Positions 1,261-20,475 of a DNA stretch of 20,795 bases are shown here, piece by piece. The stretch lies in the IMG/VR virus record IMGVR_UViG_2529292920_000022, one strand, 5' to 3'. The notes under the pieces were generated by a model that saw only the letters and a program-made list of their open reading frames with translations, did no database searches and was not told the DNA's origin. The stretch is from a virus. Lineage: Duplodnaviria > Heunggongvirae > Uroviricota > Caudoviricetes. Position 1 is the stretch's first letter. Each line of letters opens with the position of its first letter. A program made the position numbers and the translations under genes.

Positions 1261-1355
1261 CTGAATAGATTGAGCCTAGCTCGACGGGGCGAAAAGCGGG
1301 AAGCCTTACCGCCTGGCTCAATCACAAAATAAGGCGCAGCGTAAAAGGTGACGCA

Positions 1356-2435: not shown

Positions 2436-2639
2436 ATGAACACCGACACTATTCCTACAAAAGGCTATATCAGACGCTTCCGCCTGGCTGAATTGCTGGG
2501 CGTTAGTGTATCCACCATCGACCGTAAAGTAAGAAACGGTTCACTACCACGTCCGGTAAAGCTGGGAGAAAAAATAACTGCGTTTGATGCGGTTGAGATT
2601 CACAACTGGCTGGCAGAACGCCGCGGGAAGGTGGCCTGA
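2436..2639 (+). CDS. alpA: AlpA-family transcriptional regulator / excisionase-like protein
   Basis: 67-aa ORF; the segment RRFRLAELLGVSVSTIDRKVRNGSLPRPVKLGEKITAFDAVEIHNWL matches the AlpA / MerR-like HTH pattern. Sits next to a P4-type integrase. The RBS region is flanked by an inverted repeat (CCCGTAAC ... GTTACGGG). Confidence 0.85.
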   Translation: MNTDTIPTKGYIRRFRLAELLGVSVSTIDRKVRNGSLPRPVKLGEKITAFDAVEIHNWLAERRGKVA

Positions 2640-2649
2640 TGGAAAAGAA

Positions 2650-3770
2650 AAACCGCCCATTACAGGCGGCTAATTCAGATATTCGCGTATCTGATGTTAC
2701 GCCCCTGACAAAATCCCTTCAAGCACCTGTATGGGTCCACCACATATTGCAATTTTTATTCTCTTTTAAAATATATTCCACGGGCGTCATTAGTGCGAGC
2801 GCCTTGTGGGGTCTTTTGCTGTTATACAGCACCAGATATTCCGCCAGCTTCTGGTTAAATAGCGCCAGATCTTCAAAGAGTAAAATCTCATTAAATTCAA
2901 TAAACTGCTCTCTTAACGTCCGGTTAAAACGTTCACAGATAGCGTTCATTTTTGGCGTGTAGGGATAGGTCCAGAGGTGTTTGATAGCGGCTTCCTGCAG
3001 CGTTTTGTCGAAGTTTCCCAGGAACTCTTTTCCGTTATCTGTGATTATCTGGCTGATACCGACCGGGAACAACCGGGCTGCGCGGCTGAAGAAGTGATTG
3101 ACGATATCACTGTTGAGTGACGGCACAGCCAGCGCCAGCGCGTAATTGCTGCATTCGTCGATCATGGTGATGACATAGCGACGCAGTTCGCCCATTCTGA
3201 GCTCAATGGCGTCCATCCCAATGAGCTCACCTGTCTTTACCGGGCGGTAGTGCTTTGGCCTGCGGGGTTTGGCAGACCGCTTTTTGACAAGCAGTGCCTT
3301 CCCCCGCGATCCCAGACGCACAGGTATCATCCGCATTTTATCATGTGCGGCAGCGATCATTCTGCCGATGGTGGAAACACTCGGACAGGCCAGATAGCGC
3401 TGTTCGCACCAGGGCTTCAGGCGAACAAAAATCTGCTCTTTACCGAGGTTCGGCAGCTCTGTCCTGAGGCGTCGAATCTCTTTCAGCACATCGGGATGCC
3501 AGTGTTTTTTTCGTCGCACCAGAGGTGCCTTACTGTGCGGGATTAGCCCCTCAGGTCCTTCCTTGTTCAGTAACTGACGCCACCAGTAAAGCGTGCGGCA
3601 GGACACGCCAAAGGCTTCAGAAGCTGCAGAAATACCGTGTTTATCCCAGAAGTGCAGAGCCTTCATTCTCATTGTTGCTATATCAGCCATCACTGAAAGC
3701 CTCAACGCATAATCGGCCGTTTGGTAGTACTTAGGATAGCCAACCATCAGATGCTGCATTTGCATAGTGC
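2650..3770 (-). mobile_element. IS481-family-like insertion sequence (single-ORF DDE transposase); boundaries approximate
   Basis: A single minus-strand ORF with an N-terminal HTH and an rve-type DDE core fills the gap between alpA and the next plus-strand gene. Imperfect inverted motifs near both ends (CATCAGAT-containing) are candidate terminal repeats. Exact ends and target-site duplication not resolved. Confidence 0.5.
2719..3765 (-). CDS. DDE transposase (rve / integrase core), IS481-family-like
   Basis: 348-aa ORF. N-terminal HTH (MADIATMRMKALHFWDKHGISAASEAFGVSCRTLYWWRQ) and candidate D, D, E residues (GMDAIEL, ITDNGKEF, NAICERFNRTL). The true start is probably the internal Met near 3690. 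Confidence 0.75.
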   Translation of the reverse strand: MQMQHLMVGYPKYYQTADYALRLSVMADIATMRMKALHFWDKHGISAASEAFGVSCRTLYWWRQLLNKEGPEGLIPHSKAPLVRRKKHWHPDVLKEIRRLRTELPNLGKEQIFVRLKPWCEQRYLACPSVSTIGRMIAAAHDKMRMIPVRLGSRGKALLVKKRSAKPRRPKHYRPVKTGELIGMDAIELRMGELRRYVITMIDECSNYALALAVPSLNSDIVNHFFSRAARLFPVGISQIITDNGKEFLGNFDKTLQEAAIKHLWTYPYTPKMNAICERFNRTLREQFIEFNEILLFEDLALFNQKLAEYLVLYNSKRPHKALALMTPVEYILKENKNCNMWWTHTGA

Positions 3771-3865
3771 AATCTCCCCTTACTTATCCGGAGGCAATTG
3801 CAATATCTCTGTGAACTTACACAGCACCAAAGCGCACACCGAAAAAGCATCGTGCCAGAGTCTAT

Positions 3866-4171
3866 ATGCTGCGTACTGGTATAGAGGGATGGACAGAAAA
3901 TGACATTCTTCGCTACTGCCGTCTGTCTTCTGGTCGTAACTATGCAACAGAGTTAGAACGCCAGCTTGGAATCACTCTGGAGCGTATCGACGAAAAGAAT
4001 CCTGATGGTATCGGAACACACCTTCGCTACCGTTTCTCCTGCCGTGGTGATGTTCTGAAAGTGATCACTCATGTTAACCATCTTGCGAACATAAATGATC
4101 ACAACGGACTTTCTCAGCAGGAAATTGCCGACATTCTGAAACTCTACCCGAACGCGTTTAACGCCGCCTAA
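3866..4171 (+). CDS. Hypothetical protein (101 aa); possibly a remnant of a gene disrupted by the IS
   Basis: Open frame immediately right of the IS with no convincing RBS at the annotated ATG. Confidence 0.35.
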   Translation: MLRTGIEGWTENDILRYCRLSSGRNYATELERQLGITLERIDEKNPDGIGTHLRYRFSCRGDVLKVITHVNHLANINDHNGLSQQEIADILKLYPNAFNAA

Positions 4172-4183
4172 CGGAGACTGAAA

Positions 4184-5017
4184 ATGAACATCGAAAAAAG
4201 CAGATTAATTTCTGAGGCCGCCCCTCATCTGAACGCCTCTCTGGGCACAATTAACGGTAATGAATTTGCCGCAATTGTCCCGGTTATTCCTGGTCATATC
4301 GGTGGGCGTGAAACCAATATTGTTAGCGCAAAAGCGTTACACAAAGCGTTGGGCGTGGGAAAAGACTTCTCTACATGGATCACTGATCGCATCTCTGAAT
4401 ATGACTTCACCATTGGGCACGATTACTCAGTCCATAAAACAATTTCCCCAAATTTGGGGAAAAGCCCGAATGGCGCGGCTTACAGCAAGATAAAGCACTC
4501 TGGCAGACCCGGCAAAGACTATCTGTTAAGTGTCGGAATGGCGAAAGAACTGGCAATGATCGAACGCAATGATCAGGGTCGCGCTATCCGCCGTTATTTC
4601 ATCCAGTGCGAGGAAGAATTACAGCGTACCGTGCCTGAAATCGCCGCCCGCTATCGTCGCCAGCTAAAAGCCCGTATTAGTGCCGCAAACAACTTTAAGC
4701 CAATGTGCGATGCGCTGAATATGGCCCGTGCCGAGATGGGGAAAATGACGCAGCAACACCACTACACAAACGAGAGCAATATGATTTCTCGTATCGTTCT
4801 TGGTGGGCTAACTGCTAAGCAGTGGGCGCGGATAAATGGCTATTCTGGCGAACCTCGCGACCATATGAACGCAGAACAGCTTGAGCACCTCTCATATCTC
4901 GAAAGCACCAATATCACGTTAATTGATATGGGCATGGAATATGAGCAGCGCAAAGGAGAACTCACCCGCCTGTCGCAACGCTGGCTCGCCAAGCGTCTGG
5001 AGGCGCTCAATGTCTAA
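4184..5017 (+). CDS. AntA/AntB-domain antirepressor-like protein
   Basis: 277-aa ORF. The segment KDYLLSVGMAKELAMIERNDQGRAIRRYFIQCEE and the preceding region match the AntA antirepressor domain pattern. Confidence 0.65.
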   Translation: MNIEKSRLISEAAPHLNASLGTINGNEFAAIVPVIPGHIGGRETNIVSAKALHKALGVGKDFSTWITDRISEYDFTIGHDYSVHKTISPNLGKSPNGAAYSKIKHSGRPGKDYLLSVGMAKELAMIERNDQGRAIRRYFIQCEEELQRTVPEIAARYRRQLKARISAANNFKPMCDALNMARAEMGKMTQQHHYTNESNMISRIVLGGLTAKQWARINGYSGEPRDHMNAEQLEHLSYLESTNITLIDMGMEYEQRKGELTRLSQRWLAKRLEALNV

Positions 5018-5189
5018 GCCAACAGGAACACCACAACCACAAAAACGCTACAAAGATGCCCACGGAGCACTCGTTACTGTCGAAAGCGTGTCTCACAACC
5101 GAGTGACGTTTTATCGCGACGGGTATCAATCGCCATGCGTACAACCGCTGGCGCGTTTCATGAAGGAGTTCGCGGAGGTTAACCAATGA
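5010..5189 (+). CDS. Small protein, DUF4222-like
   Basis: 59-aa ORF (MSKPTGTPQPQKRYKDAHGALVTVESVSHNRVTFYRDGYQSPCVQPLARFMKEFAEVNQ). GGAGG RBS 8 nt upstream; start overlaps the end of the upstream gene by 8 nt. Confidence 0.5.
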   Translation: MSKPTGTPQPQKRYKDAHGALVTVESVSHNRVTFYRDGYQSPCVQPLARFMKEFAEVNQ

Positions 5190-5619
5190 TACCCGTCCAG
5201 AAGAAGACATTTTCACTGGCTGGTATGTCGCCAAAATCCAGCAATATGACGGCAAAGTCAGGCATTAATACAGCAGATACAAGCAAAGTTTATCATTTGC
5301 TGGTGGTCGGAACGGATGCCTTAACCATACCAGAAATCTCGGGCGATGATATTAGCATTGAGAAGGTCAGCGGCTGCGCCAGAAAATTTCTGGTCGTAGA
5401 TGATGTCTTCCGCTCGCGTAGTGACTCCACAAAAACCTTCATCCGCGCGCGTGACGTTAACGAAATGAGCGCGATGTACTGTGCATCTGGTGCTTCCAAT
5501 AGCGAGTTTTCGGAGTCCATAAAAAAGAGCTTGCCGTTATGCGGCAACACGGTTTATGGTTATAAGGCACCTCATAAAACGGGTGCCGGGATTGGCGTCC
5601 TGGTAAATCGAATGGCGAC

Positions 5620-5847
5620 ATATGACGCGCCGAGCGTCTTTTTTTATGTCGTAGGTCTGACTCACCCATTTTTTGGGCGTTGGTGTATAATCCAGCGCCT
5701 TTGTCAATCAATGGTGGCTCAGGCAGGGGCTTCTTCGGAAGCGCCGGTATCCATTCGAGCCGGTTACGCCAACCCTGTCTGGGCTACCACCAGCGAAATT
5801 GGCGTTTCCGGTGGTAGCGTTACATGCTATCGAATGGAGGCTGCCAC
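5620..5847 (+). promoter_or_regulatory. Candidate terminator, promoter and structured leader upstream of the icd-like gene
   Basis: Short GC hairpin GACGC-GCCGA-GCGTC followed by a T7-8 run (about 5624-5645); extended -10 TGTATAAT (about 5684-5691); leader with a GCUUC-UUCG-GAAGC tetraloop hairpin and a 9-bp inverted repeat GCTACCACC / GGTGGTAGC; GGAGG RBS before the ATG at 5848. Confidence 0.3.
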
Positions 5848-6042
5848 ATGCTGGCTACTACCCCTACCCAAAAACCGCAATTTATCTGGATTATCGCCGC
5901 AGTTCGCCGCGATTGCCCGACAATTACCGCCAGAATTCATCATATTGCTGCCGAGTCTGAACGCGATGCTCGCCGTTCTCTGGTGCGCGATCACGTCTGC
6001 TTTTTTGCTGGTCGTATCCGCATGGAGGTGGCACATGATTAA
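5848..6042 (+). CDS. Icd-like (cell-division-inhibitor-like) small protein
   Basis: 64-aa ORF MLATTPTQKPQFIWIIAAVRRDCPTITARIHHIAAESERDARRSLVRDHVCFFAGRIRMEVAHD. The FxGR...V...H C-terminal pattern and size match Icd-like proteins of P1/P4-like elements. Good RBS. Confidence 0.55.
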   Translation: MLATTPTQKPQFIWIIAAVRRDCPTITARIHHIAAESERDARRSLVRDHVCFFAGRIRMEVAHD

Positions 6043-6253
6043 AACCTACGATGTGCATATGGATCCCCTCGAACGCACAAGCCAGATCATCACACTGACA
6101 GAAGTGATTAACGACATTCTGGTGAGCAACTCTCCCTCACGAGACGAAAGACTGAAGGCGTTACTCGCGATATTGGATCTCGCCGTTCGTGACGTTCATT
6201 TCCTGCTGGAAGGTGGCGAAATGCCAGTAAAAACGGGGGCAACCAATGAATAA
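6035..6253 (+). CDS. Hypothetical small protein (72 aa)
   Basis: ATG overlaps the icd-like stop (ATGATTAA); GGAGG RBS. It is the real 3' portion of the 355-aa ORF in the track, which I take to be a chimera. Confidence 0.5.
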   Translation: MIKTYDVHMDPLERTSQIITLTEVINDILVSNSPSRDERLKALLAILDLAVRDVHFLLEGGEMPVKTGATNE

Positions 6254-6440
6254 CTCAATTAATACCCCTCGCCTTACGTCCGCACTTCAATTAATCGAGC
6301 AAGCAGCGGCTGTCCTGGTTGCTGTCAGTCTTTCGGCTGAAGAAATGGACGCTACTGATGTCGTGGATGCGATTAAAGCGTGCTCATCTTTGGTTAACGA
6401 TGCCCGTGCAGAGCTGGTAATTCTTGGGGGTGAAAAATGA
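6246..6440 (+). CDS. Hypothetical small protein (64 aa)
   Basis: Start overlaps the upstream stop (ATGAATAA); part of a co-directional chain of coupled ORFs. Confidence 0.5.
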   Translation: MNNSINTPRLTSALQLIEQAAAVLVAVSLSAEEMDATDVVDAIKACSSLVNDARAELVILGGEK

Positions 6441-6700
6441 ATATCAACTTAATTTATCGTCATCCGTGTGAGCTGGAAATTGAATCATTGCTGAGCCGTG
6501 AAGAACCATATCCAGACACATTCACTCTTGCAGATCGCACGACTGAACGGCTTACCAGAGCGCGCACAGGTCTGGTTCATGTGATGAATGAGATTCTTCC
6601 ATCGGTGGGAGGGGAACAGGCGACAGTAATCACTAGCTGGCTACAAAAAGTTACCTCTCTGATAGATATCAGTTTAATCGATGCGGAGAGTGCGAAATGA
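6437..6700 (+). CDS. Hypothetical protein (87 aa)
   Basis: ATGA start/stop overlap with the upstream ORF. Confidence 0.5.
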   Translation: MNINLIYRHPCELEIESLLSREEPYPDTFTLADRTTERLTRARTGLVHVMNEILPSVGGEQATVITSWLQKVTSLIDISLIDAESAK

Positions 6701-6918
6701 CCAACATCCAGCTCATTGAAGCGCAATGTCGCATCGAACAGGTTCAGACTGTTTTAGGGTTCTGGCTTGAAGGGGCCAGCCCCAGCAACAGAGACAAGTT
6801 AATGATTGGCGCGGTTATGTCACTGCTCAATGGCGTACCAGAAGCTATTCAGGAAGCAGACGAATTGTTGGGCAAATATGAGTTACAGAATCATTCAGGC
6901 GAGGCGAAACATGAATAA
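6697..6918 (+). CDS. Hypothetical protein (73 aa)
   Basis: ATGA start/stop overlap with the upstream ORF. Confidence 0.5.
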   Translation: MTNIQLIEAQCRIEQVQTVLGFWLEGASPSNRDKLMIGAVMSLLNGVPEAIQEADELLGKYELQNHSGEAKHE

Positions 6919-7513
6919 TTTCTTAACTTTCCAGGCAGAAGCAACGCCTGACGGCGTAAACATCATGCACCGCAGCAACGATGGCATGACAGAACGCGTT
7001 GAGACCGTCTCATATATTGATGCCGTAAATCGTCTGGATGCCGAGGATTATGACGATAAACCAGATGAAGGTATGTCAATACATCTCGCTATTGCCGATG
7101 GCGGCAACCAGGGATATTTCGATTACACATCACAGCATAACGTCATTATGTGGAGATGGTTGATCGCAACAGTATTCATGCTGGAAATGAGAGAGGAAAA
7201 CGGCACTGTCAGCATCATTGATGATACTGGCAATCCTTCCGAAGTGGCTGTTTATTCCAACGGCATCGTCGCCATGCCGCTGTATCCAGTAGCAGAGCGC
7301 CTCGCTATGGCAAACAACATTGAGGGCGCGATGATAGAACGTTTTGGCATCGAGTCTGGCACAGAACGCTCCATCATTTTCTACAGAGCCATGATGGATG
7401 TGGAACAAGGAGCACTGACTCCATTTGGTCGTGAAACGCTTGCTGAACTTCACAACAGCTTTATAGCTGAACTGAATGAAAACGGCATGCCATCGGAACC
7501 AGTGACGCACTGA
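6911..7513 (+). CDS. Hypothetical protein (200 aa)
   Basis: Internal Met of track ORF 6806-7513; the start MNNFLTFQ overlaps the upstream stop (ATGAATAA). Confidence 0.5.
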   Translation: MNNFLTFQAEATPDGVNIMHRSNDGMTERVETVSYIDAVNRLDAEDYDDKPDEGMSIHLAIADGGNQGYFDYTSQHNVIMWRWLIATVFMLEMREENGTVSIIDDTGNPSEVAVYSNGIVAMPLYPVAERLAMANNIEGAMIERFGIESGTERSIIFYRAMMDVEQGALTPFGRETLAELHNSFIAELNENGMPSEPVTH

Positions 7514-7523
7514 GGATGGAACC

Positions 7524-7865
7524 ATGATTACTAAAAATTTCCGACTGAATGCGCTGGCAAATAAGTATGCGTCAGCACTGTATAACCACATTACCTCCAC
7601 CAGCGGCGGGGACTATTTCATGATTGATGCGGACGGAGAGGCCGTACGTGTGGAAATCGTCAATGGAGTAAAAGGCGTTCGCAGCCTGATCGATAGTTAC
7701 GCACTGGCAGCCATGAAAGTGTTCTACCCGCAGTGGGAAACCGTGGGGATCGAGCTTCTTGATCGTTGCGTCACTAAGGACAGATTGACTGACGTCGGGC
7801 GTGAGATATGGCAAAGCATGGTTAATGACATGGGCGCAACTGTAGCGGGAGGTTCTCATGCGTGA
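7524..7865 (+). CDS. Hypothetical protein (113 aa)
   Basis: Co-directional ORF in the pre-primase operon, with a short intergenic gap carrying an RBS-like GGAGGATGG. Confidence 0.5.
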   Translation: MITKNFRLNALANKYASALYNHITSTSGGDYFMIDADGEAVRVEIVNGVKGVRSLIDSYALAAMKVFYPQWETVGIELLDRCVTKDRLTDVGREIWQSMVNDMGATVAGGSHA

Positions 7866-8229
7866 AAATGCAGAAATGGCGCTTAGCTCCGCAATCGGAG
7901 AGCAGGTGGCAAAGATTGCTGGTGCTGTGTGGATTCATAACCTTCATTCTACTGGTGAAGAGAAAATGGCAATTCAGACGCCAGAGGGACGCACTATTAC
8001 TACATCTCTGAAGCCGTCAGATGTTTGTGATCTGATTTGCGCATTCATGTACCCAGCAATGAGGACTGTCCACGGCGATAAGTGGAAACTTGCGACAACC
8101 GCTGAATTTGATATGTGGCTAAACAATGATGGCATGCTGACTGATTACGGAATAACCAAGTGGCAGATGCTGGTTAGCCATATCGCAAACGCTATAGACC
8201 ACGTGGGGTACGGTGATGCGAAACATTGA
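7858..8229 (+). CDS. Hypothetical protein (123 aa)
   Basis: Start overlaps the upstream ORF end; its stop overlaps the primase start. Confidence 0.5.
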   Translation: MRENAEMALSSAIGEQVAKIAGAVWIHNLHSTGEEKMAIQTPEGRTITTSLKPSDVCDLICAFMYPAMRTVHGDKWKLATTAEFDMWLNNDGMLTDYGITKWQMLVSHIANAIDHVGYGDAKH

Positions 8230-10972
8230 TCTTATCCGTCAGGTTATCAGTGCGTCTGAAAACAACTGGCCTCATGTGCTGGGCTGCCTGAACATAAATG
8301 TCCCTGACTCTCCGCGCCGTCATGCTCCCTGCCCTGCATGTGGGGGCAAAGATCGATTCCGGTTCGATGACAACGGGCGCGGTAGCTTCATCTGTAATCA
8401 GTGCGGCGCTGGTGATGGGCTGGATTTAATTAAACGCGTAAATAACTGCGACACAACAGAGGCGGCGCTGCTTGCCGCTGATGTTCTGGGTATTGATTAC
8501 CGGACAACGGAAACACCAGAAGCCACCAGCCAGAAACGGGAACAACTGGAAACCGAGCGCCAGCAACGCGAACAGGAGCGCCTGAAAAGGGCGGAGAAGG
8601 ACGAACAACAAAGACGGGATACGTTTTCCCGTCAGTTTGATGACATGCGCAGAAAGGCTGTAAACGGCAAATCTGATTATCTGGTTGCGAAAGGGGTAGG
8701 TGATTTTACATTCCCCGTGTTGCCCGATGGATCTCTGTTGCTGGCGCTGGTGGATAAATCCGGCGCAGTCACAGCAGCACAGACTATTACCTCACATGGT
8801 GAAAAAAGACTCCTGACAGGTTCAGCAAAGCGGGGGGCATATCACGCCATAAACGCACCAGAAACAACACAGAGCATCTTAATCGCAGAAGGGCTGGCAA
8901 CGGCATTATCTGCCCATTTAATTCGTCCAGAGGCGCTGACAGTGGCGGCGATTGATGCCGGGAACCTGTTATATGTCGCCCAGGTACTGCGGGATAAATT
9001 TCCTTCAGCACAAATCATCATTGCTGCGGATAACGACCACAGCGAAGGAAGACAAAACACGGGGAGAATAGCAGCAGAAAAAGCAGCTTTATCTGTTTCT
9101 GGATGGGTGGCATTACCCCCGACAGGTCACAAAGCAGACTGGAATGATTACCACCAAAAACACGGCATTAAATGCGCCACAGAAGCGTTCAATAAGTCAA
9201 TGTACCAACCACAGGGTAATGGCGTGAAACAGGAGCCACAGACCATTGAGGGAAGCGATTTTAAGGTTATGGATACCGACCCACTGAAACCAAGAATAGA
9301 AAGCCGCGAGGATGGTATTTATTGGGTATCTCCGAGAGCTGACAGCCAGAGTGGAGAAATCATCAATAACGAAAGCTGGTTATGTTCTCCGTTAAGCGTT
9401 ATCGGTACTGGCAGAGACGATAAAGACCAGTATCTCATTCTTCGCTGGCTGTCGTTTGGTTCTGAAACGCCGACAACCGCTGCCATTCCACTGGCTGATA
9501 TTGGTGAACGTGAAGGATGGCGCACACTTAAAGCTGGTGGGGTAAATGTCACGACCAAAAGCAGCCTCAGAGCAATACTGGCAGACTGGCTACAACGCAG
9601 TGGCTCTCGTGAATTGTGGCGTGTTGCTCATGCCACTGGCTGGCAATGCGGAGCGTACATCATGCCTGATGGGGAAATCATCGGAACACCTGAAAATCCT
9701 GTGCTGTTCAGCGGGAGAAGCTCAGCCGCAGCCGGATATACCGTCTCAGGGAGCGCGCAAAGCTGGCGTGATAACGTGGCGCGTCTGGCCTTTGGTAACT
9801 ATTCAATGATGACCGGGATCGGCGCAGCACTGGCAGCACCATTGATTGGGCTGGTGGGCGCTGACGGGTTCGGCATTCATTTCTATGAGCAGTCGAGCGC
9901 AGGTAAGACCACCACGGCAAACGTGGCGAGCAGCTTATACGGCAACCCTGATTTACTGCGGCTGACGTGGTACGGAACCGCGCTGGGGCTGGCAAATGAG
10001 GCCGCCGCCCACAATGACGGACTAATGCCGCTTGATGAAGTTGGTCAGGGCGCTGATCCTGTCAGCGTTTCACAGTCTGCCTATGCGTTATTTAACGGTG
10101 TAGGGAAACTGCAAGGCGCTAAAGATGGTGGAAACCGGGATCTAAAACGCTGGCGTACAGTGGCAATCAGCACCGGAGAAATGGATTTAGAAACATTTAT
10201 CGCTACTTCCGGGCGAAAAACCAAAGCCGGGCAACTGGTGCGACTGCTGAATATTCCGTTGAGTAAAGCAGTACGCTTTCACGATTACCAGAACGGAAAA
10301 CAGCACGCAGACGCACTGAAAGACGCTTACCAGCATCACCATGGCGCAGCCGGGCGTGAGTGGATTAAATGGCTGGCAGACCACCAGCAACAGGCTATTA
10401 AAACTGTTCGTGATTGCGAAAGCAGATGGAGAAGCCTGATCCCACCCGATTATGGTGAGCAGGTTCACCGTGTAGCCGCGCGATTTGCCATTCTGGAGGC
10501 CGCATTGTTGTTAGGCGAGGTTGTAACAGGCTGGGATGCTCAGACATGCCGTGATGCGATACAGCACAGCTATAACGCATGGTTGCGCGAGTTCGGCACA
10601 GGTAACAAAGAGCATCAGCAGATTATTGAACAAACGGAGGCATTTCTTAATGCCTATGGGCTTAGCCGTTTTGCACCATTTCCATACAGCCCGGCAGATT
10701 TGCCCATCAAAGATTTAGCCGGATACCGTCAGCGTGGAGAACATGACGAAAGCCCAATGATTTTCTACACATTCCCGGCCACATTTGAAAAGGAGATCGC
10801 ATGTGGTTTCAACGCAAAACAGTTTGCTGAAGTGTTGAAAAAAGCCGGGATGCTAACCCCACCAAACAGCGGTCGTGGATACCAAAGAAAATCACCACGT
10901 ATTCAGGGACGACAAATAAACGTTTATGTACTCAATTACCAGCCAGGAGATTATAACTCATCTGAAGAATGA
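8213..10972 (+). CDS. Primase-helicase (P4 alpha-like: zinc-binding primase region, TOPRIM, C-terminal helicase domain)
   Basis: 919-aa ORF. N-terminal Cys cluster (CPACGGKDRF...CNQCG); TOPRIM-like acidic motifs (IAEGLATALS..., IIIAADNDHSEGRQNTG); Walker A-like GIHFYEQSSAGKTT and Walker B-like LMPLDEVG. The ATG at 8216 is the likely start (8213 is GTG). Confidence 0.9.
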   Translation: MMRNIDLIRQVISASENNWPHVLGCLNINVPDSPRRHAPCPACGGKDRFRFDDNGRGSFICNQCGAGDGLDLIKRVNNCDTTEAALLAADVLGIDYRTTETPEATSQKREQLETERQQREQERLKRAEKDEQQRRDTFSRQFDDMRRKAVNGKSDYLVAKGVGDFTFPVLPDGSLLLALVDKSGAVTAAQTITSHGEKRLLTGSAKRGAYHAINAPETTQSILIAEGLATALSAHLIRPEALTVAAIDAGNLLYVAQVLRDKFPSAQIIIAADNDHSEGRQNTGRIAAEKAALSVSGWVALPPTGHKADWNDYHQKHGIKCATEAFNKSMYQPQGNGVKQEPQTIEGSDFKVMDTDPLKPRIESREDGIYWVSPRADSQSGEIINNESWLCSPLSVIGTGRDDKDQYLILRWLSFGSETPTTAAIPLADIGEREGWRTLKAGGVNVTTKSSLRAILADWLQRSGSRELWRVAHATGWQCGAYIMPDGEIIGTPENPVLFSGRSSAAAGYTVSGSAQSWRDNVARLAFGNYSMMTGIGAALAAPLIGLVGADGFGIHFYEQSSAGKTTTANVASSLYGNPDLLRLTWYGTALGLANEAAAHNDGLMPLDEVGQGADPVSVSQSAYALFNGVGKLQGAKDGGNRDLKRWRTVAISTGEMDLETFIATSGRKTKAGQLVRLLNIPLSKAVRFHDYQNGKQHADALKDAYQHHHGAAGREWIKWLADHQQQAIKTVRDCESRWRSLIPPDYGEQVHRVAARFAILEAALLLGEVVTGWDAQTCRDAIQHSYNAWLREFGTGNKEHQQIIEQTEAFLNAYGLSRFAPFPYSPADLPIKDLAGYRQRGEHDESPMIFYTFPATFEKEIACGFNAKQFAEVLKKAGMLTPPNSGRGYQRKSPRIQGRQINVYVLNYQPGDYNSSEE

Positions 10973-10997
10973 GCTTCTTCATGTGCGTAGAAAAGGT

Positions 10998-11108
10998 GTT
11001 GGTTCAGTTGGTTCAGTTGGTTCAATTTGTAAAGAGTATTGTTTTATAAGGATTTTATTCTTTTTATTGAACCAACACTGAACCAACAACACGGTATTTT
11101 GAACCAAC
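10998..11108. repeat. Iteron array, putative replication origin (left copy of an inverted pair)
   Basis: Three tandem GTTGGTTCA 9-mers (about 10998-11024), a 44-bp AT-rich spacer, then three TGAACCAAC 9-mers (the reverse complement) at about 11069, 11079 and 11100. Lies immediately 3' of the primase gene. Confidence 0.6.
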
Positions 11109-11428
11109 ACAATGTGACTGAATTGATGCGCACAACACCTGGCTGGCATCAGAGAGTGTTTTACGAGACTTTCGTAAAATCCTGTGTACAAGGGCGTGAC
11201 GTTTTTGAAAGTGAGCACTACGAAATTTTCGTAGTTCAAAAAACAGCCTCTGAGAAGTTGTTATGCCTGTTCAGCAAACCATCCGCATAGCTGATCGCGA
11301 ATCAAATTACCAATGGAGCCAGAAGCAAGGGCAGAACTGAAAAGCGCCTGCCGTGAAGAGTAATGCGATACCATAAATATAGTTTTTAGAGTCCATAAAA
11401 AACCTGTCAAAACCTGACACACAGAACG

Positions 11429-11462
11429 ATGCCACCAGCTACTGAGCGGTGGCATTTTTTTG
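11429..11462 (+). terminator. Rho-independent terminator
   Basis: 8-bp stem ATGCCACC / GGTGGCAT with an 11-nt loop, followed by 8 or more T. Confidence 0.6.
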
Positions 11463-11556
11463 TGCTATTTGTTTCATATTTTGCAATTACGATGATGAAT
11501 ATTGCGATTTGTGAAACCATAATAACTGTTGTTTTATACAGTTCTAAGGGGGCGTT

Positions 11557-11718
11557 ATGGCTATTTCAGTAAAGCCGGTATTGATAAGTGAGAAGCAAAT
11601 GGAAGCGATAAAGAAAATTCAGGAAGAGCAGCGTAAAAAATCAGGAATTGGAGTAGCGCCAACTCTGCATGAAATTGCACGAGGGTTAATAGATAAGGCG
11701 CTGGCAGGCTGTATGTGA
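11557..11718 (+). CDS. Small hypothetical protein (53 aa), possible regulator
   Basis: ORF MAISVKPVLISEKQMEAIKKIQEEQRKKSGIGVAPTLHEIARGLIDKALAGCM with AAGGGGG RBS. Below the ORF-track length cutoff. First gene after the terminator and promoter-like AT-rich region. Confidence 0.4.
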   Translation: MAISVKPVLISEKQMEAIKKIQEEQRKKSGIGVAPTLHEIARGLIDKALAGCM

Positions 11719-11734
11719 AAATGGATGGCATCGC

Positions 11735-12196
11735 ATGGAACTAAAATTTATTGATAACCCTGTGCGATTACAGGCCTTTCTTAACGAGCCAGGCAATACC
11801 GAAAATATTGTTGAGCCGGGGCACACGTACTACATCAAGCCTGATGCGGTATATCTCGGCATCTACGAAGGATTAGTGCTGGCTGGCGTTCATGAAGTGC
11901 GTAACTTCTGGCATAGCGTTGTTGAATGCCATGCGGTGTACGACCCCGGATTCCGTGGTGAATATGCACTGCAAGGGCATCGATTATTCTGCAAATGGCT
12001 TCTCGAAAACTCACCATTCCTTAACAGCATCACCATGGTTCCTGACACCACCAAATACGGACGGGCAATTATCCGTTTGCTTGGCGCTACCCGTGTTGGT
12101 CACCTTGATGATGCTTATATCAGATGTGGTAAACCCGTCGGCGTAACGCTTTATCAGTTAACTCGGCAACAATATAAGGAATTCAGCGAATGTTAA
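11735..12196 (+). CDS. Phage virion-assembly-associated protein, P22 gp14-like by position (tentative)
   Basis: 153-aa ORF translationally coupled (ATGTTAA overlap) to the following three genes. Assigned by position in a gp14-gp7-gp20-gp16-like array; the sequence itself is not diagnostic to me. Confidence 0.4.
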   Translation: MELKFIDNPVRLQAFLNEPGNTENIVEPGHTYYIKPDAVYLGIYEGLVLAGVHEVRNFWHSVVECHAVYDPGFRGEYALQGHRLFCKWLLENSPFLNSITMVPDTTKYGRAIIRLLGATRVGHLDDAYIRCGKPVGVTLYQLTRQQYKEFSEC

Positions 12197-12867
12197 TTAC
12201 CCATATAGCTCATAAACATCTCAATCGTGCCGTATACGAAAAAGGCGGTGATGGTGGTGCCTCTAAAGCTCAGGCGAAGGCCCAGCAGCAGGCAATTGAT
12301 TTGCAGCGCGAGCAGTGGAATACGGTGATGAATAATCTCAAGCCGTATGCAGAAGTCGGATTGCCTGCTTTACAACAACTGCAAGGACTGATGACTCTGG
12401 AAGGGCAGAATAAAGCCGCGAATGATTTCTTTGGTTCTGGTTTATATAAAACACAGGCAGATCAGGCCCGTTATCAGAACCTTGTCTCAGCAGAAGCTAC
12501 CGGGGGGCTTGGCTCAACAGCTACCAGTAACCAGTTATCTTCCATTGCGCCCATGCTTTATAACAATTGGCTCAGTGGGCAAATGCAAAATTATGGAAAC
12601 CTGCTAAATGTCGGGATGAATGCGGCATCAGGGCAGGCAACGGCAGGGCAAAACTACGCCAATAATACCGGACAACTCTTGCAGGGGCTTGGCGCTATTC
12701 GTGCAGGTCAGGCGCAGCAGCCATCCAGTCTTGCGCGTGGTATTGGTGGGGCAGCATCAGGCGCTTTAGCGGGTGCGCAACTTGGTTCCGTTGTTCCTGG
12801 AATAGGAACTGCGGCCGGCGCTATTGGTGGTGGGCTTATTGGTCTTGTTGGGGGGCTTGGATTCTAA
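12190..12867 (+). CDS. Ejection (internal virion) protein, P22 gp7-like
   Basis: 225 aa (P22 gp7 is about 229 aa as I recall). Gln/Ala/Gly-rich with a Gly-rich hydrophobic C-terminus (GIGTAAGAIGGGLIGLVGGLGF). TAATG coupling to the next gene. Confidence 0.55.
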   Translation: MLITHIAHKHLNRAVYEKGGDGGASKAQAKAQQQAIDLQREQWNTVMNNLKPYAEVGLPALQQLQGLMTLEGQNKAANDFFGSGLYKTQADQARYQNLVSAEATGGLGSTATSNQLSSIAPMLYNNWLSGQMQNYGNLLNVGMNAASGQATAGQNYANNTGQLLQGLGAIRAGQAQQPSSLARGIGGAASGALAGAQLGSVVPGIGTAAGAIGGGLIGLVGGLGF

Positions 12868-14288
12868 TGGCGACATGGCAACTTGGCGGGCTGCCTAGCA
12901 TGGCACCGCAAAATGATAATGCTCCTCGTTCTTCCGTTCCTCAGCCTGTGCAGTATCAGCAGCAGCCAAACGTAGGTTTAATGGCGCTACAGGGGCTAAG
13001 AGGCGTTGCTGAGATTAATCAGCAGGCACGTCAACAACAGCGTAAATCAGAGTTTCAGAAAGCATATGCCGGGGCTTTTGAGTCTGGAGACAGAAACAAA
13101 ATGCGCAGTCTTATTTCTGAGTATCCAGAAGAATTTGAAAGCGTTCAGAAAGGGATGGGCTTTATTGATGACGACCAGAGAAATTCTATTGGTCATCTTG
13201 CGACTAGTGCTCAAATCGCATCTTCGCTCGGAACTGGGGCATTTGGAAAATTCATAGCAGATAACGAAGATGAAATGCGTCGCTTGGGAATTTCTCCTGA
13301 GTCTGTTGCCGAAATGCATGTTAATGATCCACAGGGATTCCAGCGGCTTGCTGGTAGTATGGCACTGTTTTCTCTCGGTCATGAGAAGTATTTCGATATC
13401 AAAGATCAAATGGAAGGTCGGGATATTGAGCGAGGCAGGCTGGCAGAGACAATCCGCAGCAATCAGGCTGGCGAAGCACTTCAGGCGAGAGGGCAGGATA
13501 TTAGCCGAGCAAATGCGTTAACGTCAGCATATGCACCAACAGCAGCAATGCAGAATTACAATCAGTACGCTCAAATGTTAAAGGCGGATCCAGAGGGGGC
13601 GGCGGCATTTGCGGCAGCGGCTGGAATTAATACAAACGCCAAAAAATTAATGAGTGTTAGAGAAAACGATGATGGCACTGTCACAAAATACTACACAGAC
13701 GGAAGTGAAGAGCAGGGAAAACTAAACCAGCCAATATCTGGAGATGGGTTTCGTCCAATAGCTTTGCCAACAGCCCAAAAGATCATGGAAAAGTCGCCAG
13801 AAGGGGCTAAAAAAGCTGCTGGATTTGCATACAGGGTTAGGGATGCTCTTGATTCAATAGATACACTGAAAGACCAGCTTAGCCCACAGCGAGTGGCGAT
13901 CATTAATAATGCTTTGGGTAATGGGACGCTGGCTAACTTAACGCTCAGCCCAACAGAGCAGCAATACGTTGTTAATGCTAATGACGCAATAATGGCAATA
14001 CTCCGTCAGGAAACAGGGGCAGCTATCGTACCTGCTGAAATGTCAAAATATTATCAAATGTATTTCCCTCAGCCTGGCGACTCCACAAAAACCATTGATA
14101 CCAAGCGCCGGAAGATGGAAAACCAGTTCAATTCGCTGAAAGCTGCTTCTGGTCGAGCTTATGATGCTTTGCGGGTTATTTCAGCAGTTGACAGAGGAAC
14201 GTCTTCTTCGTCGCAGACATTGCCGCAATCTGAGCAGGTATCACAGCCAGCAGCCAGCAGTAACTTTTCTTCACTATGGGGTGATTAA
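12867..14288 (+). CDS. Ejection protein, P22 gp20-like
   Basis: 473 aa (P22 gp20 is about 471 aa as I recall). Low-complexity Q/A-rich N-terminus. TAATG coupling on both sides. Confidence 0.55.
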   Translation: MATWQLGGLPSMAPQNDNAPRSSVPQPVQYQQQPNVGLMALQGLRGVAEINQQARQQQRKSEFQKAYAGAFESGDRNKMRSLISEYPEEFESVQKGMGFIDDDQRNSIGHLATSAQIASSLGTGAFGKFIADNEDEMRRLGISPESVAEMHVNDPQGFQRLAGSMALFSLGHEKYFDIKDQMEGRDIERGRLAETIRSNQAGEALQARGQDISRANALTSAYAPTAAMQNYNQYAQMLKADPEGAAAFAAAAGINTNAKKLMSVRENDDGTVTKYYTDGSEEQGKLNQPISGDGFRPIALPTAQKIMEKSPEGAKKAAGFAYRVRDALDSIDTLKDQLSPQRVAIINNALGNGTLANLTLSPTEQQYVVNANDAIMAILRQETGAAIVPAEMSKYYQMYFPQPGDSTKTIDTKRRKMENQFNSLKAASGRAYDALRVISAVDRGTSSSSQTLPQSEQVSQPAASSNFSSLWGD

Positions 14289-16393
14289 TGGCTAAAGCAT
14301 GGAAAGATGTTATCGCCTCTCCACAGTATCAGGCGTTAGCACCAGAACAAAAAGCGCAGGCTCAGGAGCAATACTTCAATGAAGTCGTTGCCCCGCAAGC
14401 CGGAGAAAGTGTAGAGCAGGCTAAGCAGGCTTTTTATGCTGCCTATCCACTACCATCAACGAATGAAATAGACCGATCCCAATCAGCAACTCAAAATATT
14501 CAACATACATCATCTGATAATTCTCTTGCGTCAGGGTATGCAAAGTTAGCTACTCAGCAAAGAGAGGGGCTTGAGCGTTCAGCAGAACAGGGAGCCAGTC
14601 TTGGGGCTGCGATGCGCGATGCTATAACAGGCGAAAGCCGAATGACTTCAGAGATGGAGAGACTGCAAAATGTCGCCTCTGCCCCAGAATTGAACTCACT
14701 AAGCATGGATGCCCTAAAGGCTGGATGGTCCCAACTTTTCGGCTCTGACGCGTCTCAGGAAAAGATTCTTCAGGGAATGGGGGCGACATTAAGGCAGGAT
14801 GAGAAGGGGAATACTATCGTTTCTCTGCCATCAGGTGATTATGCCCTGAACAAGCCGGGTTTATCACCGCAAGACCTGACTTCGTTTCTTGCTAATGCGT
14901 TGGCGTTTACACCAGCGGGCAGGGCTGGAACGGTGCTTGGTGCCATAGGAAAATCAGCAGCTACAGATTTAGCACTACAGGGAGCCACCAGCCTTGCTGG
15001 TGGAGAAGATATTGATCCGTTACAAACGGTAATTTCTGCTGGTATTGGTGGTATTGGTAAGGGGCTGGAAAATACAGCGAGTGCGGTTTCGAGGGCTGTT
15101 CGTGGTGATATGTCGCCTGAAGCAAAGGCTGCTGTCGACTTTGCATCGGAAAGAAATCTGCCGTTAATGACCAGTGACATGCTGAAAGATAAAACCTTTA
15201 TGCAGAGTCAGGCTCAGACATTAGGCGAAAGAGTTCCTTTTTTTGGAACCGGTAAGAATCGGCTGAATCAACAACAAGCACGAGAAAATTTAGTCAGAAC
15301 ATTTAGCGATGGTCTGGGTGGCATTTCTGATAAACAGCTTTATGAATCTGCGACTAAAGGGCAACAAAAATTCATTGAGGCAGCAGGAAAGCGATATAAC
15401 CGCATAATTGACGCTATGGGGGATACCCCTGTCGATCTCTCAAACACGGTAAAAGCTATCGACAATCAGATTGCCGTGTTAAGCCGCCCGGGCAAATCTC
15501 AGGATAGAGCCGCGGTAAAAGTCTTGCAGCAATTTAAAGACGATATCACCAGCGGACCAAATGACCTGCGCCTGGCGAGGGAAAACAGAACCGATCTTCG
15601 AAAGCGATTTATTGCGTCATCTGACACTGTTGATAAAGATACGCTCCAGAAAGCCAGCGATATTATCTACAAGGCATATACGGCGGATATGAAAAAAGCC
15701 GTAGCCAAAAATCTTGGAGCAGACGAAGCCATTAATATGGCAAGGGTTGATCGCTCATGGTCTAAATTCAATGACATGATGGGAAGAACGCGCGTTCAAA
15801 AGGCAATAGCCAGCGGCAAGGCCACGCCTGAGGATGTAACAAAACTCGTTTTTAGCCAAAGCCCATCAGAACGTTCTCAGCTTTACAGGCTTCTGGATGA
15901 CAATGGTAGGCAAAACGCACGAGCAGCCATAGTTCAGAATGCTGTAGATAAGGCGACTGATCCGTCTGGAAATATCAGTGTTGAGAAGTTTATTAATGCG
16001 TTACACCGGAACAGGAAGCAATCAGCAACTTTCTTTAAAGGCGTACATGGGAAGGAACTGGACGGCGTTATTAAATACCTCAACGATACAAGACACGCGG
16101 CAAAAGCGAACGTTCAAAACTTAAATGGTCAGCAGCTTTATGGATTGTTAGTTGGTGGTGGCATCATAAACGCAGCAGTATTAGCGGGGATGCTAAAAAC
16201 GGCTGCGTTTGTTGTTCCTGCTGCTGGTGCCGTAGGCGGAGCAGCGAAGGCATACGAAACCCCTGTTATACGAAATGCCTTGTTACGTCTGGCAAATACG
16301 CCAAAAGGTAGCACAGCATATGACAGAGCGATCAGTACGGTCACACAATCGCTCACCAGAGTCGCACAGGCATCACAAAAAGAAGCTCAATAA
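14288..16393 (+). CDS. Ejection protein, P22 gp16-like
   Basis: 701 aa. Ala/Gln/Gly-rich with a C-terminal hydrophobic Gly/Ala segment (LLVGGGIINAAVLAGMLKTAAFVVPAAGAVGGAA). Last gene of the four-gene coupled operon. Confidence 0.55.
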   Translation: MAKAWKDVIASPQYQALAPEQKAQAQEQYFNEVVAPQAGESVEQAKQAFYAAYPLPSTNEIDRSQSATQNIQHTSSDNSLASGYAKLATQQREGLERSAEQGASLGAAMRDAITGESRMTSEMERLQNVASAPELNSLSMDALKAGWSQLFGSDASQEKILQGMGATLRQDEKGNTIVSLPSGDYALNKPGLSPQDLTSFLANALAFTPAGRAGTVLGAIGKSAATDLALQGATSLAGGEDIDPLQTVISAGIGGIGKGLENTASAVSRAVRGDMSPEAKAAVDFASERNLPLMTSDMLKDKTFMQSQAQTLGERVPFFGTGKNRLNQQQARENLVRTFSDGLGGISDKQLYESATKGQQKFIEAAGKRYNRIIDAMGDTPVDLSNTVKAIDNQIAVLSRPGKSQDRAAVKVLQQFKDDITSGPNDLRLARENRTDLRKRFIASSDTVDKDTLQKASDIIYKAYTADMKKAVAKNLGADEAINMARVDRSWSKFNDMMGRTRVQKAIASGKATPEDVTKLVFSQSPSERSQLYRLLDDNGRQNARAAIVQNAVDKATDPSGNISVEKFINALHRNRKQSATFFKGVHGKELDGVIKYLNDTRHAAKANVQNLNGQQLYGLLVGGGIINAAVLAGMLKTAAFVVPAAGAVGGAAKAYETPVIRNALLRLANTPKGSTAYDRAISTVTQSLTRVAQASQKEAQ

Positions 16394-16397
16394 CTGG

Positions 16398-16421
16398 TTA
16401 GCCATGGATGGCTAATTTTTG
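16398..16421 (+). terminator. Candidate terminator between convergent genes
   Basis: Inverted repeat TTAGCCAT / ATGGCTAA followed by TTTTT, immediately after the gp16-like stop. Confidence 0.35.
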
Positions 16422-16831
16422 TTCTTTGCTCTCATCCATAGGTAAAGAAGGGAAAGAACAAGACAAAAAACAGAGAATAGATAACCTACCTCATATGGTG
16501 CGCCAAAAAAATTAGCCATTGATACGGGCAAAAAAGCTGAAGCGATCAAAATTGAAAGGCAAAAAATAAGCCCAGTAATATAGTTTATTAAATTCTTAAA
16601 TGAGAAACGTTTTGCTTGATTTACGGTCTTAACGAACGATCGCTTAACGACGGATAAAAGCAAATAGATGGCGACAGTTGCTAATGCCCCTTTCCACCAG
16701 TCTGGATATAGTTTTGCGACAATCAGACCAAGGAAAACCATGATGACAGCCTGAGCATTCACACCAACCCTCCCTTTAGCTTTGTTTAGAATGGCAATCA
16801 TCATATATCCAAGACATGGCATTTGGTACAT
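16412..16831 (-). CDS. AT-rich integral membrane protein; candidate superinfection-exclusion / moron protein
   Basis: 139-aa ORF with about four hydrophobic helices (VIMVFLGLIVAKLY, ATVAIYLLLSVV, GLIFCLSILIASAFL, LFSVFCLVLSLLYLW). Low GC. Convergent with the ejection operon, the position SieA occupies in P22. Confidence 0.55.
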   Translation of the reverse strand: MYQMPCLGYMMIAILNKAKGRVGVNAQAVIMVFLGLIVAKLYPDWWKGALATVAIYLLLSVVKRSFVKTVNQAKRFSFKNLINYITGLIFCLSILIASAFLPVSMANFFGAPYEVGYLFSVFCLVLSLLYLWMRAKNKN

Positions 16832-17567: not shown

Positions 17568-19928
<2,361 letters not shown>

Positions 19929-20030: not shown

Positions 20031-20151
20031 GTTGGTTCAGAGCTGGGCTGTGTTGGTTCAAAATGAGTTGATGTTGGTTCAATATTTTAGAAAAAACACA
20101 ATAAAAACAACGCTCTTTACAAATTGAACCAACTGAACCAACTGAACCAAC
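20031..20151. repeat. Iteron array (right copy; inverted relative to the 10998-11108 array)
   Basis: Three GTTGGTTCA at about 20031, 20052 and 20073; an AT-rich spacer; then three tandem TGAACCAAC at about 20125-20151. The flanking CTCTTTACAAAT and CACCTTTT are the reverse complement of the left-copy flanks. Confidence 0.6.
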
Positions 20152-20187: not shown

Positions 20188-20475
20188 ATGATAAAGGACA
20201 GGAAAGCTGAAGAGCTGGAGTCAAAAGGGCTATACCGGAGAGCTGCCGCACGATGGGCAGAAGTCATGATGCTGGCAGATGGCGATAAAGAACGTGAACA
20301 TGCAGCAAACAGACGCTCTGAATGTATCCGTAAGGCGGCACGCCCACCAGCAACTACAGACAGATTCGGAGATTTAAGACAGGCAGTTAAGCGGACTCAT
20401 TCGGCTCTTGGTATGGATGAGGAAGCGAGAGGGTACTTCAGGCGTTATCGCGATAAAGATTGCCAGAGACAGTAA
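20188..20475 (+). CDS. PerC-family transcriptional regulator-like protein
   Basis: 95-aa ORF; the N-terminus MIKDRKAEELESKGLYRRAAARWAEVM matches the PerC/Pch family pattern. TATAAT-like -10 and a GAGAGG RBS lie just upstream, directly next to the iterons. Confidence 0.65.
   Translation: MIKDRKAEELESKGLYRRAAARWAEVMMLADGDKEREHAANRRSECIRKAARPPATTDRFGDLRQAVKRTHSALGMDEEARGYFRRYRDKDCQRQ

Follow-up and report, generated by a model that had tools for sequence, protein, structure and literature searches.

A P22-type ejection-protein module as cargo of EcCIMP1-family chromosomal islands of Escherichia coli

EcCIMP1, a phage-inducible chromosomal island (PICI), is a 19,963-bp element of Escherichia coli MP1 that excises and circularises only with the P22-like phage Kapi1 (genus Lederbergvirus); both its own integrase and alpA, the master activator of its excision, are required (Pick, Stadel & Raivio, ISME J 2025; PMC11773190). 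The authors marked a set of its genes by colour as 'DNA transfer', took these for packaging candidates, declared phage structural genes to be absent, and classed the island as Type C #var01 for want of a packaging-redirection gene (PMC11773190). The MP1 transcriptome paper reports some EcCIMP1 genes, left unnamed there, as up-regulated in lysogens. Here we describe a stretch of 20,795 bp (IMG/VR record IMGVR_UViG_2529292920_000022; hereafter the window, at its full length) that, judged by sequence comparison, is very probably a PICI of the same family: a satellite of P22-like phages that carries a cassette of P22-type ejection proteins (E-proteins) encoded by homologues of genes 14, 7, 20 and 16.

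Three further groups of described elements provide points of comparison. Classical Gram-negative PICIs (EcCICFT073, EcCIEDL933) share with the window an integrase, alpA, a primase with an adjacent origin (ori), a helper-exploitation module and a perC-like gene, all within some 10–20 kb; however, their post-primase module redirects the packaging (Rpp, capsid morphogenesis) of cos/pac siphoviruses, whereas that of the window consists of podovirus ejection proteins. Capsid-forming PICIs (cfPICIs) likewise supply some virion proteins themselves and rely on the helper for the remainder, but what they encode is capsid, portal, connectors and terminase, and what they steal is tails: the EcCIMP1 family encodes only internal ejection proteins and has to obtain all other virion parts elsewhere. 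P22-like phages (P22, Sf6, HK620, CUS-3 and Kapi1) have the same four protein families in the same order with overlapping starts, the same mosaic pattern (gp7 and the N-terminus of gp20 conserved, gp16 hypervariable) and, like the window, a variable envelope-protein gene on the opposite strand after gene 16 (compare sieA in P22). In these phages the module lies behind gene 26 in the late operon; in the window it stands alone behind a satellite-specific leader. We found no mention of ejection proteins in the major satellite surveys.

The ejection module and its island

A preliminary description of the window, made from its sequence, had read four consecutive genes as P22 gp14, gp7, gp20 and gp16, and profile searches bear this out (Table 1); for gp16 a precomputed match to PF26808 (Phage_P22_gp16) is also on record. 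The gp14 and gp7 genes share a 7-nt overlap (ATGTTAA), and TAATG is found at both the gp7/gp20 and the gp20/gp16 junction; because the junctions overlap, the four genes are predicted to be translationally coupled. Gene order and overlaps agree with P22, Sf6 and Kapi1. Alignment of gp7 with its counterparts from these three phages gave a mean column identity of 74%, and the glycine-rich hydrophobic tail that had been remarked upon is conserved in this protein. Searches by sequence found no solved structures for relatives of gp20 or gp16. To judge from these comparisons the four genes constitute a functional-looking P22 gene 14-7-20-16 module.

The remainder of a P22-like virion is lacking, as had also been noted: tblastn with the Kapi1 terminase, portal, scaffold, coat, gp4, gp10, needle, tailspike and lysis proteins gave no match in the window, and a complete or defective P22-like prophage was rejected on the negative result for the flanking virion genes. 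Public annotation hides the module. In many genomes the 701-aa gp16, although intact, bears the RefSeq flag 'incomplete; missing C-terminus' (for example at 18889–20994 of locus L001, strain JP538), and some records label gp20 'acyltransferase'; both are annotation artefacts, the pseudogene flag in JP538 because the open reading frame (ORF) is intact.

The window is closest to EcCIMP1. Positions 3823–13027 share 97.5% nucleotide identity with the MP1 locus over 9.2 kb, with the same gene order. Common to both elements are int, alpA, AntA, DUF4222, Ash, small ORFs, the Toprim/DUF927 primase, iterons and the leader, followed in the same order by a 53-aa ORF, gp14, gp7, gp20, gp16 and perC. The differences are several: the integrase and the attachment (att) site (yicC/dinD in the window, tRNA-Thr near proA in MP1); gp20 and gp16 of 473 and 701 aa in the window versus 439 and 906 aa, with an SLT domain, in EcCIMP1, the gp20 proteins being 48% identical over the N-terminus only and the gp16 proteins giving no BLAST match; a lipoprotein after gp16 in EcCIMP1 where the window has a four-helix membrane protein; and two insertion sequences (ISs) in the window copy. 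Given the identity and the shared gene order, the window is therefore very probably an EcCIMP1-family PICI with another integrase and att site. The flanks of the island lie outside the window, and the att context was read from sister copies. These are about 19 kb long and located at yicC/dinD or at tRNA-Thr; the JP538 island (∼19 kb) lies between the core genes yicC and dinD and contains no other P22 genes.

The integrase, AlpA, primase and adjacent ori are all co-oriented, a hallmark of Gram-negative PICIs. Absence of phage structural genes, by which PICIs are also recognised, holds only in part: there are no capsid, tail, terminase or lysis genes, but E-proteins are virion components. No packaging-redirection gene (terS/Rpp or capsid morphogenesis) was matched in the window by Pfam or PHROG profiles, and by the logic of SatelliteFinder the element would be classed as 'Type C'. 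The int-alpA-primase satellite context recognised at the outset stands, with a P4-type integrase, AlpA and a Toprim/DUF927 primase. A P4-like satellite was nonetheless rejected: integrase type and AlpA are all that is shared with P4, the primase is of the Toprim/DUF927 kind rather than P4 alpha, and Pfam and PHROG gave no match to Psu or Sid in the window. All IMG/VR matches to the window are prophage predictions from isolate genomes and are uninformative on packaging.

Distribution, maintenance and exchange of the cassette

A census was based on 5,426 complete E. coli genomes, with window positions 11327–11705 (terminator, promoter-like stretch and 53-aa ORF) as the leader query. The conserved leader is present in 498 genomes. 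It is followed by gp14 in at least 239, directly by gp20, without gp14 or gp7, in 214 (e.g., CP53 and AH19E045), and by unrelated small genes in 33 (e.g., 30COLEC). Overall, the EcCIMP1-family island occurs in ∼8% of complete E. coli genomes, and approximately nine in ten members (about 93%) carry ejection genes, the family being split roughly in half between a four-gene form (gp14-gp7-gp20-gp16) and a form with gp20 and gp16 only. The operon of the window is itself found at ≥99% identity in many complete E. coli genomes, and an assembly collection lists the identical 701-aa gp16 in 266 of its blocks, with islands in all ten contexts shown. Comparative genomics, suggested in the preliminary description as a check, reveals that the operon travels with the int-alpA-primase backbone in hundreds of genomes, among which two att sites and at least two kinds of primase (Toprim/DUF927 and DUF5906) are represented.

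One locus with alternative cargo (L006; NZ_CP070930.1, 1399296–1425675) has a P4-type primase and the same leader and small ORF, with three unrelated small genes replacing the E-protein genes. This island is inserted near torI/dsdC, where it adjoins a P22-like prophage at the tailspike/gtr end, and its cargo is found in 33 genomes.

Beyond E. coli, one genome per species was scanned with a gp7 alignment. Of 16 loci, 14 belong to full P22-like prophages, all of them with terminase, portal, scaffold, coat, gp4, gp10, gp26 and tailspike genes; one is an island in an Escherichia species; and one is a fragment from Streptomyces. Because the scan gave a single island, and that in an Escherichia species, the island form seems to be centred on Escherichia and close relatives; cluster names also list Citrobacter, Salmonella and Shigella. 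The Streptomyces harenosi fragment (L037) lies at the end of a 7,502-bp contig, is gp7-like at 81% over 37 residues, and is probably contamination or a chance fragment.

The ejection genes are intact and under purifying selection. Ratios of non-synonymous to synonymous substitution rates (dN/dS) between the window and EcCIMP1 are 0.29 for gp14 and 0.12 for gp7; island-to-island comparisons gave 0.08–0.29 for gp20 and 0.14–0.20, even along the length of the gene, for gp16 (for comparison, the primase gave 0.16). Among 12–15 island copies there are no stop codons, and polymorphic codons are distributed (synonymous/non-synonymous) as 13/6 in gp14, 12/3 in gp7, 5/7 in gp20 and 5/3 in gp16. Of the members of the 90% cluster that were read, the majority have their full length.

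Comparison of alleles reveals a mosaic. The gp14 of the window is of the Kapi1 type: 98% identical to that of EcCIMP1, 84% to that of Kapi1 and 23% to the Sf6 type. Its gp7 is 99% identical to the EcCIMP1 protein and 55–58% to phage gp7s. Similarity of gp20 to phage gp20s extends only over the N-terminal ∼200 residues (35–57%), the best whole-length match being APSE P33 (52%), and the best match to gp16 among sequenced phages is 67% (phages N7 and HZ41). The islands hold at least three unrelated gp16 types. Set against gp20 of the CP53 island, that of the window differs over residues 1–190 and is nearly identical in the C-terminal part, with a breakpoint at ∼190. Alleles are shared directly with a complete P22-like prophage from a fox isolate (L039), whose gp16 is 93.7% identical to residues 69–701 of the window protein; a DNA block common to the prophage and window positions 14516–16784 (93% identity) spans gp16 and the membrane gene downstream. 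Because this prophage has a near-identical gp16 and membrane gene, islands and phages can be seen, at the level of sequence, to exchange within the ejection module.

With Kapi1, DNA identity is 81% over ∼600 bp, and the island proteins are 57% (gp7), 26% (gp20) and 24% (gp16) identical to those of the phage. Since homology to Kapi1 sets in precisely with the ATG of gene 14, and both have the same 16-nt terminator core after gene 16, the cassette is delimited as gene 14 to the post-gene-16 slot. A mimic of the pac site or of terS was rejected: blastn (word size 9) of the window and EcCIMP1 against the whole Kapi1 genome found no match beyond the cassette, although a short pac site could escape this search.

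Leader, iterons and neighbouring genes

Table 1. Features of the window, in order of position.
Feature	Position	Strand	Basis or remark
P4-type tyrosine integrase	1–1260	+	Arm-DNA-bind_3, Phage_int_M and Phage_integrase domains
int-alpA RNA motif	1269–1335	+	Rfam RF02996
AlpA-family regulator	2436–2639	+	Domain match
IS insertion	2728–3822	-	rve-type transposase at 2719–3765; splits ORF downstream of alpA
AntA antirepressor and Ash-family genes	4184–6253	+	Domain matches
isrK; C4 antisense RNA	5567–5644; 5707–5794		Rfam; within Ash region
Primase-helicase	8213–10972	+	Domain matches (zinc ribbon, Toprim, DUF927)
Iteron cluster 1	10998–11108		Three GTTGGTTCA copies, AT-rich spacer, three inverted copies; directly after primase stop
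Conserved leader	11327–11556	+	TGTCA-N5-TGACA repeat, intrinsic terminator, promoter-like stretch
Intrinsic terminator	stem 11429–11454, T-run to 11461		Upstream of 53-aa ORF
53-aa ORF	11557–11718	+	First gene of operon
gp14 homologue, 153 aa	11735–12196	+	DUF2824 PF11039, 1.5e-61
gp7 ejection protein, 225 aa	12190–12867	+	P22_gp7 PF25688, 6.6e-73, residues 16–223
gp20 ejection protein, 473 aa	12867–14288	+	Inj_translocase PF16928, 3.1e-58; PHROG 917, 1.7e-112, residues 1–473
gp16 ejection protein, 701 aa	14288–16393	+	PHROG 770 'DNA transfer protein', 2.1e-161, residues 19–700
Terminator-like hairpin	16396–16417	+	16-nt core identical to sequence after Kapi1 gene 16
Predicted four-helix membrane protein, 129–139 aa	16412–16831	-	Slot where P22 has sieA
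IS21-family insertion	17707–19606	+	istA-like 17793–18815; istB 18880–19542
Iteron cluster 2	20031–20151		Mirror image of cluster 1; immediately upstream of perC
PerC-family regulator	20188–20475	+	Domain match

The nonamer GTTGGTTCA occurs 12 times in the window against an expectation of 0.13. Because the copies form two mirror-orientation clusters, the two inverted iteron arrays between which the operon had been placed are real. Cluster 1 is the presumed ori; cluster 2 is kept in EcCIMP1 and other family members, where a second origin and a regulatory or handcuffing site are candidate roles. Between the iterons and the leader lie two 15-nt palindromes, TACGAGACTTTCGTA (11162–11176) and TACGAAATTTTCGTA (11219–11233), 57 nt apart; they are conserved in most family members and look operator-like.

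The leader is nearly invariant among family members regardless of cargo. Its promoter-like stretch has the -10 sequence CATAAT in the window and TATAAT in relatives, together with a weak -35; a consensus promoter scan upstream of the operon found none, the weak -35 and good -10 being apparent by eye. A mimic of the helper's late promoter (PR'/qut) was considered and rejected, there being no similarity upstream of the operon to the part of Kapi1 that separates Q from the holin gene. The preliminary description had the operon begin after a terminator and a small regulator-like ORF: the positions of both stand, but the identity of the regulator finds no sequence or Foldseek match. This 53-aa ORF is 100% identical in EcCIMP1 and gave no match in Pfam, PHROG or PDB sequences; its AlphaFold model (pLDDT 78) has a short disordered N-terminus followed by two helices and looks like a candidate ribbon-helix-helix regulator.

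The slot after gp16 differs from one island variant to the next: its product is a membrane protein, of the four-helix or of the Bax1-I-like kind, a secreted protein, or a lipoprotein whose lipobox reads LAGC (other loci: L002 7632–8330, L003 19067–19507, L005 17047–17442), and three of the slot proteins have their first ∼30 residues in common. The gene in the window is 87% identical to its counterpart at the same place in prophage L039. Its 139-aa ORF resembles P22 SieA in position, orientation, size class and predicted multi-pass membrane topology, but differs in sequence: blastp and phmmer against P22 SieA (type A) and HS1 SieA (type B) were not significant and the FnRYPnEAnnFNK motif is absent, and identity with SieA was rejected on these grounds. 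Pfam, PHROG and PADLOC gave no match for this ORF. The slot genes are candidate exclusion genes, although by sequence they are distinct from SieA.

In the early region, isrK (67 bits) and C4 antisense RNA (79.5 bits) were detected by Rfam in the Ash-annotated ORF beside AntA. Because these two RNAs adjoin AntA, and in view of the int-alpA RNA motif, this part of the island suggests a P1/P7-like c4-icd-ant immunity circuit. The gap between int and alpA is a variable accessory hot spot that holds different genes in other copies; in the window it contains a 321-aa ORF (1356–2321) with a weak PADLOC match (PDC-S31, E = 0.002). A second variable hot spot lies downstream of the cassette, where JP538 has an Abi-family gene (L001 22235–23212). 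The rve-type IS is missing from sister elements. The IS21-family insertion, which splits a 151-aa minus-strand ORF, is missing from most of them; the same insertion is present in assembly GCA_000249135.2 (L019). Because the two ISs interrupt the ORF after alpA and the 151-aa ORF, the window copy of the island may be impaired.

Possible roles of the cassette

Published work on P22 bears on what such a cassette could do. E-proteins enter procapsids via scaffold-dependent N-terminal binding (gp7 residues 21–154, gp20 residues 1–314; PMC8402733). E-protein sets of very different P22-like phages assemble into P22 virions and function, provided that gp16 and gp20 are cognate, gp7 being interchangeable (Leavitt et al., PMC10461980); when gp16 or gp20 alone is foreign, the P22 particles made include that protein but are dead (PMC10461980). 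Published P22 work also has the exclusion protein SieA acting as a block on the conduit; mutations that escape it lie in gp16 and gp20, and the E-proteins of HK620 are partly resistant.

The likeliest of the readings considered, which we propose tentatively, is that the satellite loads its own gp20/gp16-based DNA-delivery conduit into helper capsids. The proposal is made because the islands keep the N-terminal assembly regions and because the minimal form of the cassette keeps exactly gp20 and gp16. When a P22-like helper turns lytic the island would excise and replicate, as shown for EcCIMP1, and would then express the ejection operon from its hijack slot, which lies downstream of the primase and ori, behind the terminator-promoter-small-ORF leader. 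Island gp20 and gp16, plus gp7 and gp14 where present, could enter helper procapsids via their conserved N-terminal regions, and the resulting particles would carry a DNA-delivery conduit specified by the satellite. Such a conduit might make the satellite independent of the helper's hypervariable conduit alleles, so that many helpers become usable, and might permit entry into cells that exclude the helper's conduit type (for example by SieA-like exclusion in lysogens), which are recipients that a satellite needs. That the satellite conduit does give an entry specificity separate from that of the helper, whether by passing SieA-like exclusion or by allowing the use of many helpers, we consider rather doubtful.

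Several points weigh against loading. The published experiments cover excision and transfer of EcCIMP1, and we infer the presence of island E-proteins in virions as well as any need for them in transfer; Kapi1 transduces EcCIMP1 at low frequency (PMC11773190), an inefficient transfer; and only a weak promoter-like site is visible for the operon. The benefit to the satellite is conjecture, the helper already making E-proteins. Mixed island and helper sets could even be harmful, because mismatched gp16 and gp20 yield dead P22 particles, and evasion of SieA is not guaranteed, because SieA types A and B block most E-protein sets tested.

A rival explanation is that the cassette is an interference or exclusion device: its gp20 and gp16 would either join non-cognate helper proteins in virions that are then non-infectious, or work in the resident cell against the conduit of P22-like phages that superinfect it. 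Interference with the helper is common among PICIs, and the low identity of the island gp20 and gp16 to those of the proven helper Kapi1 would suit a poison, as would the death of P22 particles with a single foreign protein. EcCIMP1 also adds to the superinfection immunity of Kapi1 lysogens and confers a Kapi1-dependent competitive benefit (PMC11773190), although other genes of the island, or the one for the envelope protein behind gp16, could account for this modest immunity. We regard interference as unlikely: the titre of Kapi1 after induction is unaffected by EcCIMP1 (PMC11773190), which speaks against strong poisoning; some island alleles are almost identical to prophage alleles and would not poison such phages; and purifying selection over the full length, C-terminal regions included, exceeds what a decoy needs. 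Less probable again is that the cassette serves as a DNA homology arm, recombination with the helper late region, ∼10 kb downstream of pac, bringing the island into a helper headful. In its favour, homology to phages is limited to the cassette, neither terS nor anything similar to the terS/pac region of Kapi1 was found in the island, the mosaic shows evident exchange with prophages, a RecT recombinase is among the Kapi1 proteins, and the transduction frequency is low. DNA homology alone, however, needs neither intact ORFs nor purifying selection, both of which are found in hundreds of genomes; transfer of EcCIMP1 requires its own integrase and circularisation; and the stretch of identity to the proven helper is short.

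The preliminary description had named as the ordinary alternative a fused remnant of a neighbouring P22-like prophage. Occasional deletion derivatives do exist (H158–H160), and one true prophage remnant with a truncated gp16 was seen (L040). Yet the same exact cassette boundaries recur, beside different primases and at two att sites, in at least 450 complete genomes; EcCIMP1, as mapped by experiment, includes the cassette; there is no trace of gene 26 upstream of it; and its ORFs are intact, with dN/dS well below 1. A decaying, functionless fragment fused by deletion is therefore ruled out by the census, by the exactness of the boundaries and by the EcCIMP1 ends as mapped, and we attach only the slightest probability to it.

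The satellite family itself was already known through EcCIMP1, published in 2025 as a PICI mobilised by Kapi1, and the earlier impression that the arrangement was undescribed has to be withdrawn; its authors did not recognise the ejection module. Relative to the literature searched, what is new is recognition of the genes as a complete gp14-7-20-16 module, of this module as the standard cargo of the family in four-gene and two-gene forms, and of module alleles common to islands and phages.

Theft or remodelling by satellites is known for capsids, tails and packaging enzymes; bringing only the DNA-delivery conduit would, if true, be a new form of helper exploitation. Function is directly testable, because Kapi1 and EcCIMP1 are a published helper-satellite pair. 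The family is common (pathogens are among its hosts), and because it carries perC-like virulence regulators and defence-type accessory genes, transfer of the islands bears on gene flow. As a natural system the family also lends itself to two questions: what makes gp16 and gp20 the most variable of all virion genes in P22-like phages, and how SieA-type exclusion proteins recognise both. If the satellite does load its own conduit, satellites and phages would draw on one pool of conduit alleles, and satellites would help to drive the variability of P22-like ejection proteins.

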